A DNA stretch of 64,000 bases, from NCBI GenBank assembly GCA_903813345.2, contig CAIIXF020000001.1, forward strand, positions 10,540,001 to 10,604,000. Reading direction: 5' to 3'. Made by a program: the position numbers and the translations under genes. Of this stretch, positions 13,572 to 63,989 are shown in pieces. Position 1 is the first letter of the stretch, and each line of letters opens with the position of its first letter. The notes below the pieces were generated by a model, which did no database searches, had not been told where the DNA came from, and saw only the letters and a list, made by a program, of their open reading frames with translations. This DNA is from Owenia fusiformis. Lineage: Eukaryota.

Positions 13572-16500
13572 ATGAAGACGACAAACGTCCTGCTTGTAAC
13601 ATGCGCATTGTGCTTCATGTTCACATTAACAGAAACAAGGTCTCTTCGTAAAAGAAAGAAGAACAAAGGCTCGAGCGCTTTGAGTCTAGCGGTAAGTTGA
13701 AAACTTTTACATGCATATGATGCTCCTAAATCATTAGTAATTAATGATTCAGCAAAATATATTCTTAAAATCATAAGTCAAGGGTGGTTCCCGCTGTCGT
13801 TCCCGAATTTTTTAAAAGTATTTCCAAAAATTTTCTTCAAAATCTTCATTTCTCAATTTTCCTCCTATCTCATTTTTTCAAGTTGTGGAAAAAACTTTTT
13901 CTGGACGTCGTCCGGTATTCGGCTGCCGGTAACAAATGGCAAATAGTGACATGTTGCATGTTATATTCACAATTAAGTTATTTAAGATTAATCACATAAT
14001 CATAATCATTATTATCAATACACGTTTCATCAATATATAAACATATACACTGCGCAGTTCATTATGTTTACGTAGCTCATCATGTGATCTAATTAAATTA
14101 TCATTCAATCTTTTGGCATTATGGTATACAACTCCTTTTTCTTGGTCGGTAATTTAATTGAGTTTTACACCTCGAACAAATCATTTCCCCTTGACCCCTC
14201 GGTAAATATTTTCGCTAGGTATATAAAACATGTAGTCAATCCCTCCCATTAAATAACCTCTATCAGTACATGCACTACTCGCATGTTTGATAGTTTAGTA
14301 TTTGATATGACCTTAGGTAGTCTTTTATAATGTTATTTTCTCATGATTTCTTTCGTTGTTACAAACGAATTTTGTTAAACATTATTTAGATGAGATGGGA
14401 TTATTATAATACATGATTATGTTAAGGTTTCGGCAAAATGTCACTTTAAATGCTCAGGGTAAAAACAATAAATCATGTCGTTTTAGAAAAAGTATTCATT
14501 TTGAAAAAATTGACCGCCATTCTGACCCCCAAGGCATGGTCAAGACATGTATACGAGGATTGTCCCATAAGTAATGCACTATATGCTCTAACTCTATCAA
14601 TAATTAATTGATATTTATCCATGAAATTTTCAGTAAATGTTCCTCAGAGACATTTTGATTATTCTAATTTTCATGTTGACTGATAAAACTATATTGATGT
14701 TTAATCAAGGTGAGTTTGGGTAGGGTGGGGCAGGTTATACAGTCACGTCAAAAGGAATAAAAAATTGAAAATATGAAATAATCTATCAACAGATACCATT
14801 TTGTGTAGCTATAAGAAGTATGCTAAAAAATACATTTTAAGATACGAAATTACTATGAGCACATCCGAGATTTAATGGATGTTTATTGCACAGTGTCCCA
14901 TTTCACATTTTTTCAAAAATATTGCCTTTTGCATTTTATGTACTTTTGATGCCTATCAGGTCAAACACTTTTGGCAATTTCTTCCACTGTGACTTGTGGA
15001 GTTTTTGCCTCCCATGTTTGGAGTTGTCTTTCAGGGTCAAGTCATCTCTTTTAAATCTCTTCTGCCACCTCTTAATTGTAGTTCTATCTGGTGTATACTC
15101 CTGTTATACTTTCTTCATGGTAGCATAAGTTTGTGTGGCTGTGAGTCCATCTGAAAAATTAGGCCACCAAATGCAAGGCCTCCTGTTATTAGGTGAGAAT
15201 TGTAGCCATTTTTTGTAATTTCTTGACTGTGGCTGTATTTGATTTTGTGACTATTGAACTGTGGTATTATGACATAACAGTGCTAAATGTCATTATTTGT
15301 ACTTGTTTGACATCATGCTGAATAAATTTAACAATTTCCCGAATGTTTTGATCATTTAAAAGAACGAAATATTTATAAAATAACACTTTGGATATTTTCA
15401 TAATTAGAGAAATTGGTACCTGTCCCGTCCACCCCTACCCCCATGTTGCTATAGCAACCACATTAAGACTTAATATTAATGTTTGATTCTGAAACTTCAG
15501 GATATAATAGATGAAACTTCAATTGTTATATACACAAAATGTCAGCTGAATTGAAGAATATTAAAGAAAGTTAGAGCATATAGTGCATTACTTCTGGGAC
15601 AACCCTCGTATATCCAATATTTAACTGCAAAGAGCGTGTTTGAATTCTGAGTTCTGAGAACATTTTGATTAGCAATTAATATGAATACACGGATTCGGAA
15701 TCACCATATCGTTCTCAGTGTTTCGGTTTTAACATTAATTTCTACAATCCTGATAAACATGTCTACAACTGACATTAACCGGACTATTCAGATCCAGAAT
15801 TTTAAATATCACTCCAGATTCGATAGTTCTATTATAAACCCCACTGACTCCATCAGTGCTTGTGAACGTAAACTCATCGGTCTTCAAAATATTACATTTG
15901 ATGATGATCTCACTTGGGGTGACGTTTATAGGAAAAACAGTCGTGTTGGAAAGGTGGGCACTGGAGCCCAGAAAACCATTGCAAAATTGAGGAAAATGTC
16001 GCAATTATCATTCCTTTTCGCAACAGAGAGACACACTTGAAACATTTCCTGAATTACATCCATCCATTCTTGCAGAGACAGATGGTTTCTTATAGGATAA
16101 TTGTTATAGAGCAAAAGGAACCAATCATATTCAACAAGGCATCATTAATGAATATAGGATTTAGAATTACTTCACAACTAGAAAACAGGTATTCTTGTTT
16201 CATATTCCACGATGTCGATTTGTTCCCAGAGAGTGATTTGAACATTTACTCTTGTCTCAACGGTGCAGTAATACACTTTGCTGAATTTATAGACAAACAC
16301 AATTATACATACCCCAGGTTCAGACTAACAGGTGGAGTTATCTCAATTGACAAGCGCGTATTTCAAACCGTCAACGGGTACTCGAATAGATATTGGGGCT
16401 GGGGTGGAGAGGACAAAGATTTCTTTCATCGTTTGGAAGAGAATAACATTAAAATCATTCGCTGTGAAAATGATACTCAATGCCGATACACCATGATAAA

Positions 16501-62600: not shown

Positions 62601-63989
62601 GGTCTGTTTACGAACTTCATGAACGTTCTCAGACGGGAATGTGATTTTAGAATTTTGAATCGATTCAAAATTCGATGACGACCACACCGTTCTGTAATCA
62701 GGTCATGATGACCTTCTAGACCAAGGGATCAATTCAACATAAAACACCATCGGAATGTAACATTGAAATTTTGAACCGTGTAATACTTGAGCAAAATAGA
62801 GCCTCCAAGTGCGCTCCTTCGTGATTTTTAAATTACCTCTTCTGCACCAAGGTTCCAATACACCGTTGGAAAGCTGAGAGTGTCAGCTTTAAGAATCCAA
62901 CCTAGTGTTAATTTTGGCCTCTATCTCTACAAGGAAACAAAGGTTTTTCAATCGGATTGTGTCATACTGTTAGAAAATGATTTATCTTTAAAATGATATA
63001 TACTAAGTTTAAGATATATTATATGAATCATTCATCTTTAAATTTGGGTATTGTTTTTGGCCCACCCTGTTTATAGCAAAGTCCAATTGATTGGGAGATT
63101 CAAAGATCAAACTCATTGTTTCAGATCCATGTGCAGTAGGGGAAGTGATTTTAGACAGCCATATGTTGAACCATGAATACTATCTAGGCATAAATACAGT
63201 GATTTTTATTAAAATAATTTGTTTTCTTTTAAGTAAAGTACCCACGATGATAAAAATATCAATCGAACAATTCGAAAATTTATGAATAGGGACCCCATTT
63301 ACTCAAAAGATGATCTTCTTTTTCTGGTTTTTATTGCATGAAAAGATTATTCAACAAGGGGTCTAAAACTTCTTCAAACGTAGAATGGTATCGAAAGTCT
63401 AGTTTTGAAGATATCAATTTCCGATTACCAAAATCGTGCTGAAAACAATGGATAACACGAGTTTTCTCTATGGGAAAATAACATGGGATATGTGTTTTTT
63501 AAGTATAACGGATTTCAATACGCATCCTCTTAAAAGAGACCGACTTGGGCAAGGCTACCTTTTTTCAGAAATCGTTAATATAGTGTAGACGAAACTTTTG
63601 ATATGTTTAAATTGAGAAAAACAAGATCCTCTTTTTAGAAAATGAGCCTAACATTTTTAAAAGTACAATGATGGGGTCCTTACCCATAATTTTTCAGAGA
63701 GTTGGATTGATATTTTACTATCATGGCGACTTTACTTGAAAGAAAACATATTGTTTTTATAAAAAAAAACCTGTATTAATGGCCAGAAAGTACCTATGGT
63801 GAAGGATATGACCGTCTAAAATCACTTGCCATATTGCACATGGACCTTTACGCTTAGATCTTTCACCATGTGTTGTACATAAATGTTGCGTTGCCTAACA
63901 AATGAACAATATGTACAAGATTGTATTGTTTGTTTGCAGAGATTGTAAAACAGACCAACCCATTTCAACTTGTGCCTGAAGAGGATTAA
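56661..63989 (+). CDS. Novel secreted microexon-family protein, paralogue G (111 aa, or 104 aa from the Met at 56682)
   Basis: Exons 56661-56870, 60765-60819, 62021-62041 (21 nt), 63940-63989 give 336 nt. MMTSLNKMMTTQLLVVTLCLLVLMSFISASPRFGDSRSGVKSDRRRGGRLTNPKPAPFKGGTQSSGLRMS/GKIKDGNFIVKLAGQKPV/VFDMVKK/KIVKQTNPFQLVPEED*. Upstream non-coding donor CAG|GTAAG at 56413. Confidence 0.83.
57306..57828. mobile_element. Near-palindromic foldback MITE
   Basis: CACTGGTGATCCGCTCGATTACGCTGG / CCAGCGTAATCGAGTGGATCACCAGTG, with arms of about 240 bp. Confidence 0.8.
58299..58704. mobile_element. Small inverted-repeat element
   Basis: CGAACTCCAATGCAGTG..CACTGCGGCGGGCAG / CTGCCCGCCGCAGTG..CACTGCACGAGAGTTCG. 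Confidence 0.55.
60879..61260. mobile_element. TA-flanked palindromic MITE (partial copy at about 43195-43352)
   Basis: TA|CACTCCCCTCCATGAGTTTGGCAAC...GTTGCCAAACTTATGGAGGGGAGTG|TA, with arms of about 150 bp. Confidence 0.82.
62148..62728 (+). mobile_element. ~800-bp element, copy 4 (3'-truncated)
   Basis: Begins CCCTACTATCACACCAAACTAGTT and follows copy 1 until ...ACCTTCTAGACCAAGGGA. Confidence 0.85.

Follow-up and report, generated by a model that had tools for sequence, protein, structure and literature searches.

A tandem array of seven paralogous genes for predicted secreted proteins with a common 21-nucleotide microexon in the annelid Owenia fusiformis

We uncovered a tandem array of seven co-oriented paralogous genes (G1-G7, in their order along the + strand; Table 1) in the annelid Owenia fusiformis, which occupies positions 13572-63989 of a stretch of 64,000 nucleotides (nt) from contig CAIIXF020000001.1 (assembly GCA_903813345.2, positions 10,540,001 to 10,604,000), hereafter the window. 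Each gene codes for a predicted secreted protein centered on a common module of about 50 amino acids (aa) in which no known domain was recognized, and each is assembled from four coding exons, one of them a microexon of the same length throughout. The explanation that we favor with good confidence is that these are seven real paralogous genes for predicted secreted proteins, which may be deployed in a matrix, in mucus or in the lining of the tube. They constitute a new, lineage-restricted family belonging to a common kind of gene cluster, one that is already partly represented in public annotation.

Gene structure of the array

The window is AT-rich (GC 0.32-0.39) and holds only three open reading frames (ORFs) of at least 120 aa; the coding exons of the array other than the microexon measure 44-282 nt. 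Seven ATGs each start an ORF of 39-100 aa with a hydrophobic N-terminus. The exons downstream of these were found independently of the peptides listed in a preliminary description of this DNA: on the one hand, through an all-against-all comparison of the 2014 stop-to-stop fragments of the + strand, which grouped related fragments into small clusters distributed along the array and, on the other, through blastn between the gene regions combined with a scan for splice patterns, the boundaries then being read from the DNA. In the blastn comparison, G4 and G5 have the promoter with exon 1, exon 2, the microexon and exon 4 in common at 73-90% identity; the microexon of G1 was recovered by the scan for the pattern YAG-N21-GTRAG.

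The common thread connecting the resulting models is a single layout with intron phases 0/1/1 in all seven genes: a signal-peptide exon is followed by an exon of 55-73 nt, a phase-1/phase-1 microexon of exactly 21 nt in every member, and a terminal exon. Every spliced frame is free of internal stops and closes at a stop codon. Intron lengths lie between 113 nt and 4.9 kb, and G2 is the compact member with 642 bp in total. All 21 introns are of the GT-AG type, with donors of the form GTRAG in 19 (both exceptions are in G7) and acceptors of the form YAG in all 21, the tracts upstream of which are 78% pyrimidine as against 50% window-wide. An AATAAA or ATTAAA is found 39-151 nt past the stop in G1-G6, and the stop of G7 lies 11 nt short of the end of the window; the true start of G7 may be its second pair of methionines. 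These independently made models confirm the seven ATGs with hydrophobic leaders, the intron phases and the stop-free splicing put forward in the preliminary description, and the peptides that it listed are present in their translations.

Paralogy and purifying selection

The strict microexon pattern YAG-N21-GTRAG occurs eight times on the + strand of the window and three times on the - strand; seven of the eight + strand matches are the microexons themselves, one per gene and in the expected order. When the spliced core of each gene was scored with a profile from which it had been left out (G4 and G5 being omitted together), the cores attained 23.9-54.5 bits, values that are somewhat inflated because the exons were partly picked by likeness, and none of 2000 composition-matched shuffles reached any of them, the highest standing at 13.8 bits. 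Together, the pattern counts and the shuffles exclude chance splice patterns. The earlier proposal that seven paralogues lie in tandem and in one orientation, with their exon structure conserved, is supported. Individual exons were likewise retrieved upon omission: the terminal exon ranks first among 4667 six-frame fragments in six genes and eighth in G5, and exon 2 ranks first among as many fragments in four of the seven. When profiles built from exon 2 and from the beginning of exon 4 were run over six frames, they returned the seven training exons only; given that the next best match stands at just 9 bits, the window contains no eighth copy.

Over the core the members are 14-76% identical to each other, with 13 columns that are either invariant (a Gly, a Pro and a Phe) or conserved by residue class (the other 10). 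Over 132 codons of the pair G4-G5, the ratio of nonsynonymous to synonymous divergence (dN/dS) amounts to 0.40, and to 0.26 when the core is taken by itself; the pair G2-G3 shows 0.47 for the whole comparison and 0.23 for its core. In most other pairs the synonymous sites are saturated, and every frame is still intact. Thus, the saturated synonymous divergence, the intact frames and the dN/dS values below 0.5 fit long-standing purifying selection on a coding function, and the functional constraint supposed in the preliminary description is upheld in the two pairs where it was measured. The array arose by local duplication, and its closest relatives sit next to each other, G2 beside G3 and G4 beside G5.

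The stretches of about 270 bp that precede the start codons of G4 (34583-34856) and G5 (43751-44005) are 80% identical and constitute a candidate shared promoter of this youngest duplicate pair. At the other end of the array, G1, G2 and G3 display a pyrimidine tract and a CAG 8-15 nt before the ATG (13555-13571, 24113-24129 and 26511-26527, respectively), and in G1 and G2 the CAG is followed by the same ATCTA. These tracts suggest that an unannotated non-coding 5′ exon might lie upstream of each of the three.

A predicted secreted family with a common module

The N-termini of all seven products feature a hydrophobic h-region (mean Kyte-Doolittle value 2.9-3.7) and small residues at -3/-1, by a heuristic rule that agrees with their earlier reading as signal peptides. 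From these signal-like N-termini the products are predicted to be secreted; a second hydrophobic stretch was not seen in the alignment of G2-G7. The mature products would comprise about 57-171 aa, and most of them are strongly basic (pI 8.9-11.7, net charge +2 to +21), with no Cys at all in mature G2-G7. G2, G3, G6 and G7 are small in their mature form (57-82 aa) and carry a net charge of +11 to +21 (pI 10.3-11.7), as prototyped by the Cys-free G2 protein of about 57 aa with a pI of 11.7. In G4 and G5 the net charge is close to neutral (+6 and +2, respectively); their loop is acidic and their Thr-rich tails are long.

The alignment delineates a module common to all members, which is Cys-free, as previously claimed, and extends over about 50 aa. 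Its first part is a strand-turn-strand unit with alternating hydrophobic residues and the invariant Gly, making up an amphipathic beta-hairpin whose beta-type hydrophobic moment is 0.43-0.61 in six of the seven members. The second is a loop whose composition shifts between members, from Lys/Asn-rich at one extreme to Glu-rich at the other, such that its charge varies widely. The third is an amphipathic helix, running from the microexon, which codes for the motif [WFY][DN]xxx[KR], to the invariant Pro-Phe, with an alpha-type hydrophobic moment of 0.32-0.45 in five of the seven. Outside the module there are Thr/Pro-rich, mucin-like tails in G3-G6 and Lys-rich runs in G1, G3 and G4; in G4, Thr-rich and Lys/Asn-rich stretches flank the core on both sides. 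A single-sequence AlphaFold2 model of G5 places strands at residues 40-47, 50-52, 55-57, 60-69 and 72-78 and a helix at 83-109, with a pLDDT of 66-81 for the block of residues 41-100. Based on this model, we predict with moderate confidence that the fold is a beta-sheet or hairpin plus helix unit. A predicted two-copy complex of G5 residues 38-110 (score 0.12, mark 0.32) counts neither way.

Comparison with known families

With full-length G5 as the query we recovered no Pfam family at E<=10 and no match among PDB sequences, and its structural model found nothing in the PDB with Foldseek at E<=0.001 (best 0.11, TM ~0.2). In the Atlas the best values, 0.76 for exon 1 of G5 and 0.80 for full-length G5, are below the meaningful level, and none of 16 single-exon pieces matched Pfam above its cut-off. 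The statement in the preliminary description that the domain is not a recognized one is in keeping with these searches.

The nearest Pfam match is to Conotoxin (PF02950), covering residues 1-48 of G4 exon 1 (E 7.5e-05) at 24.0 bits versus a gathering threshold of 25.1; neither exon 1 of G5 nor full-length G5 matches this family. The signal and pro-region of G4 do resemble the leader of conotoxin O-superfamily precursors. However, the match is below the cut-off, and the absence of Cys from mature G2-G7 means that the conotoxin framework is absent; hence, we rejected membership in this superfamily and read the match as a likeness of signal peptide and composition. Further compositional matches of G4 exon 1, to Mucin (PF01456, 19.8 bits), MUCL1 (PF21823, 17.6 bits) and New_glue (PF21827, 14.2 bits), fall far below the respective cut-offs of 34.7, 35 and 31 bits. 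The members G3-G6 parallel mucin and glue proteins in having Thr/Pro-rich stretches that adjoin Lys-rich ones, but the module lies outside these low-complexity parts, and G2 and G7 lack such a tail.

Several features of the array are reminiscent of the micro-exon genes (MEGs) of Schistosoma, with which we compared it by description only. As the available part of the published account presents them, these too combine a first exon coding for a signal peptide, small secreted products (both predicted as such in Owenia) and frame-preserving microexons; their paralogues are clustered, their introns are long and rich in transposons, and automatic annotation captures them poorly (PMC10526429). However, the same part of that account gives MEGs 10-20 very short exons of 6-81 nt, mostly 15 nt, in multiples of three (PMC10526429), whereas the Owenia genes, which belong to another phylum, display four coding exons with just one microexon. 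The multiple-of-three feature holds for the 21-nt exon in all seven genes and never for exon 2, whose length is 1 mod 3 in every one. Thus, lacking the many very short exons that define them as described in that part of the account (PMC10526429), the array does not belong to the schistosome-type class, and "microexon genes", the label given to these genes in the preliminary description, overstates a structure in which one of four coding exons is a microexon.

Public annotation and copy number

A profile of exon 1 built from G4 and G5 and run against 1.84 billion representative proteins has one true match, namely G5 itself (E 2e-23). The second match (P0122, 655 aa, E 1.2e-06, in six stretches) is internally repetitive and aligns with the low-complexity columns 24-64 only; it was set aside as unrelated. 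The spliced G5 model is letter for letter identical to an O. fusiformis protein, CAH1772943.1/A0A8S4MVT2 (A0A8S4MVT2_OWEFU), which is titled "unnamed protein product" or "uncharacterized protein" in NCBI and UniProt. The available part of the paper on the Owenia annotation describes it as built from RNA-seq assemblies, curated junctions, hinted Augustus and PASA, with 5,779 gene models discarded for overlap with repeats (PMC9977687). Hence, one member, its microexon included, had been modelled independently of us, and the array, which the preliminary description called hidden, is not wholly so. The filtering for repeat overlap may explain why members are missing from the annotation. A word-indexed protein search with full-length G5 returned only G5 among 12 candidates of 72-231 aa, from which it follows that G4 as modelled is not in that collection, and to this extent the label stands; G4 may have been overlooked there, removed by a filter or given a different model. 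The same kind of search with residues 55-94 of G4 exon 1 gave no candidate sharing three words. We found no description of this family in the literature on annelid micro-exon secreted families, on Owenia and oweniid tube proteins and on the two G5 accessions, and no protein-level description in that on Owenia and oweniid tubes.

Expression and copy number were probed in the region 24050-44049, which holds G2-G4, by mapping three raw RNA-read runs that carry the species label (all from one study, tissue unstated, each read to about 6-12%) alongside one DNA-like run, X1. Coverage by X1 is about 10-12x over the unique bins that bear exons, runs to thousands in repeats and exceeds 300x in 17 of the 30 bins, which makes these genes single-copy amid high-copy repeats. 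In bins other than those of the genes, the RNA reads fall on repeats and are mostly 90-95% alike.

Possible functions and alternative explanations

If the genes are real, a function in a matrix, in mucus or in lining the tube is the likeliest of those considered, albeit one that we would place somewhat short of probable. Under this proposal, the conserved module would be a folding or association unit, and the polycationic and O-glycosylatable tails might bind polyanionic partners such as sulfated glycans, mineral or sand surfaces. A natural point of reference is the cement of sabellariids, the proteins of which are rich in Gly, Tyr (as 3,4-dihydroxyphenylalanine, DOPA) and Lys or are polyphosphoserine proteins. 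Compared by description, the Owenia family parallels these in that the proteins are small and highly charged, come from a tube-building annelid, are secreted (as predicted for Owenia) and include basic, Lys-rich members, but differs in being poor in Gly and Tyr and in having a core that is predicted to fold. We regard as rather doubtful the more far-reaching view that the module represents an undescribed, oweniid-restricted extracellular fold that serves either, when joined to polycationic, O-glycosylated tails, as an organic tube glue or lining binding sand and shell grains or as a new class of annelid host-defence proteins, with most members missing from the reference annotation.

Several observations weigh against seven real genes with such a function. 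At the level of the models, the 3′ end of G1 is uncertain: reading through gives 129 aa with a Cys-containing, partly hydrophobic tail, and there is a possible donor after 19444. The donors of G7 are weak (GTAATT after exon 1 and GTGGGT after exon 2). The selection of exons by likeness, noted above, favors the core scores. Exon 2, which the preliminary description took to be shared by all members and which is detectable on omission in the four genes mentioned, is by itself unrecognizable in G1, G4 and G5 (ranks 138-195, G1 being at 138). The AlphaFold2 prediction of G5 has a mean pLDDT of 59.4 and a pTM of 0.42 overall and was made from one sequence only. The public protein collection did not yield G4 in the form modelled here. 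Mean RNA depth is just 0-0.9 in the bins with G2 and with exons 1 and 4 of G3 and G4, and none of the 15 listed RNA joints in the region of these three genes coincides with a model intron, a further 149 joints being unlisted. This was the check that had been proposed for the junctions, and it yielded no supporting reads in these three partly read runs; we take it as weak negative evidence and not as a refutation. Finally, the members are devoid of the Gly/Tyr/DOPA or phosphoserine character of sabellariid cement, which weighs against a role in the matrix or tube.

The main rival explanation, which we consider rather unlikely, is that the products are cationic host-defence (antimicrobial) peptides, whose hairpin and helix would insert into microbial membranes, with the Lys-rich stretches providing the charge. 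The small size and strong positive charge of mature G2, G3, G6 and G7 speak for such peptides, as do the strong beta- and alpha-type hydrophobic moments. Moreover, tandem arrays with fast-diverging charge are typical of immune effectors, and here the charge of the loop diverges fast between the paralogues of a tandem array. Against this stand the nearly neutral G4 and G5 with their acidic loop and long Thr-rich tails, and a core on which selection, wherever it is measurable, is purifying and not diversifying. Known annelid antimicrobial peptide precursors have a BRICHOS or a Cys-stabilized architecture; neither is present here, as judged for Pfam domains from G5.

Far less probable is an interpretation of the products as precursors of peptide hormones or neuropeptides that are cut at basic sites into short bioactive peptides. 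Such processing could make use of the many di- and tribasic sites, of the R-x-x-R before the core in G4 and G5, and of the C-terminal Gly of G2 as a possible amidation donor. However, what is conserved is one uninterrupted module of about 50 aa that is predicted to fold, rather than a series of short peptides flanked by cleavage sites; basic residues lie within its conserved strands and helix; Thr-rich, mucin-like tails are atypical of these precursors; and the only related Pfam match, that of G1 exon 1 to Motilin_ghrelin, is weak (E 0.093).

We find it equally hard to credit that most copies are decaying or never-expressed duplicates of a single functional gene, G5, or that chance splice patterns were over-read. 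The lack of RNA reads and joints for G2-G4, the presence of G5 alone in public protein collections out of the two members looked up (G4 and G5), and the introns swollen by repeats would all suit silent copies, but the RNA sample is partial and its tissue unstated, and the removal of 5,779 repeat-overlapping models by the published pipeline, as reported in the available part of its description (PMC9977687), may account for missing members. Seven intact frames with their phases kept and strong splice signals are not what decay would leave, nor is synonymous divergence that is saturated in most pairs, yet accompanied by no stop or frameshift and by dN/dS below 0.5; chance is excluded by the microexon pattern counts and the shuffle test.

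Lastly, a MEG-like system, in which alternative skipping of the microexon would diversify the secreted product, is barely plausible: the 21-nt exon is symmetric (phase 1/1), such that skipping it would keep the frame, and the small, predicted secreted products and long repeat-rich introns would suit such a system, but there is one microexon among four coding exons as against the 10-20 very short exons of MEGs in the available account (PMC10526429), and it codes for some of the best-conserved residues of the family, which argues for its constitutive inclusion.

Insertions and repeats within the array

The array of seven genes is interspersed with mobile and repetitive elements (Table 1), which, along with the high-copy bins of X1, agree with the transposon-rich introns reported at the outset. 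The beta-1,4-galactosyltransferase-like copy is intronless and split over two frames near 15953-15983; it is closest to O. fusiformis paralogues (53-59% identity) and is probably a frameshifted retrocopy or pseudogene. The region of the reverse-transcriptase ORF is high-copy in DNA and attracts RNA reads at 90-95% identity, a pattern as expected of a non-LTR (long terminal repeat) retrotransposon family with transcribed copies somewhere in the genome. The element with terminal inverted repeats (TIRs) looks like a non-autonomous DNA transposon of the Tc1/mariner type. The C-rich minisatellite explains the strong negative GC skew of its bin, and each of the two repeat pairs reflects a repeat family that inserted independently into different array members.

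Table 1. Genes of the array and other features of the window (coordinates are those of the window; core scores are from leave-one-out profiles)
Feature	Coordinates (strand)	Exons (third = microexon) or location	Product or length	Exon 2 (nt)	Core score (bits)	AATAAA	Evidence
G1	13572-19561 (+)	13572-13691, 18446-18506, 19129-19149, 19374-19561	129 aa (uncertain)	61	23.9
G2	24130-24771 (+)	24130-24231, 24371-24443, 24594-24614, 24728-24771	79 aa	73	36.9	24922
G3	26528-32340 (+)	26528-26626, 30477-30549, 31339-31359, 32234-32340	99 aa	73	46.5	32394
G4	34857-42246 (+)	34857-35138, 36122-36191, 37126-37146, 42044-42246	191 aa	70	37.4	42285
G5	44006-49561 (+)	44006-44200, 47126-47195, 47773-47793, 49449-49561	132 aa	70		49593
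G6	50875-55260 (+)	50875-50976, 51690-51762, 53740-53760, 55187-55260	89 aa	73	54.5	55333
G7	56661-63989 (+)	56661-56870, 60765-60819, 62021-62041, 63940-63989	111 aa	55	35.5
TIR element	14550-15612	G1 intron 1	1,063 bp				44-nt TIRs, 95% complementary, starting TA
Beta-1,4-galactosyltransferase-like copy	15867-16597 (+)	G1 intron 1					Glyco_transf_7N E 4.6e-26, 7C E 8.4e-23
Reverse-transcriptase ORF	27763-29667 (+)	G3 intron 1	634 aa				RVT_1 E 6e-28
Tandem repeat	25377-25550	between G2 and G3					four 43-bp copies, 98% matches
Minisatellite	32960-33692	between G3 and G4					29 copies of a 25-bp C-rich unit, 87% matches
Repeat pair	46145-46853 and 53834-54539	G5 intron 1 and G6 intron 2	~710 bp				89% identical
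Second repeat pair	21213-21377 and 62138-62293						common element

Implications

Clusters of lineage-restricted small secreted proteins often underlie the biology that is specific to a group, such as its tubes, glues, mucus and immunity, and, where their exons are tiny and transposons fill their introns, they are poorly handled by automatic annotation. Invertebrate genomes commonly contain orphan secreted families, and the function proposed for this one comes by inference only, such that the finding is a modest one. Nevertheless, the family furnishes Owenia, a model annelid for studies of evolution and development, with candidate genes for its tube, mucus or defence secretions, and the array offers a test case for microexon-aware re-annotation.

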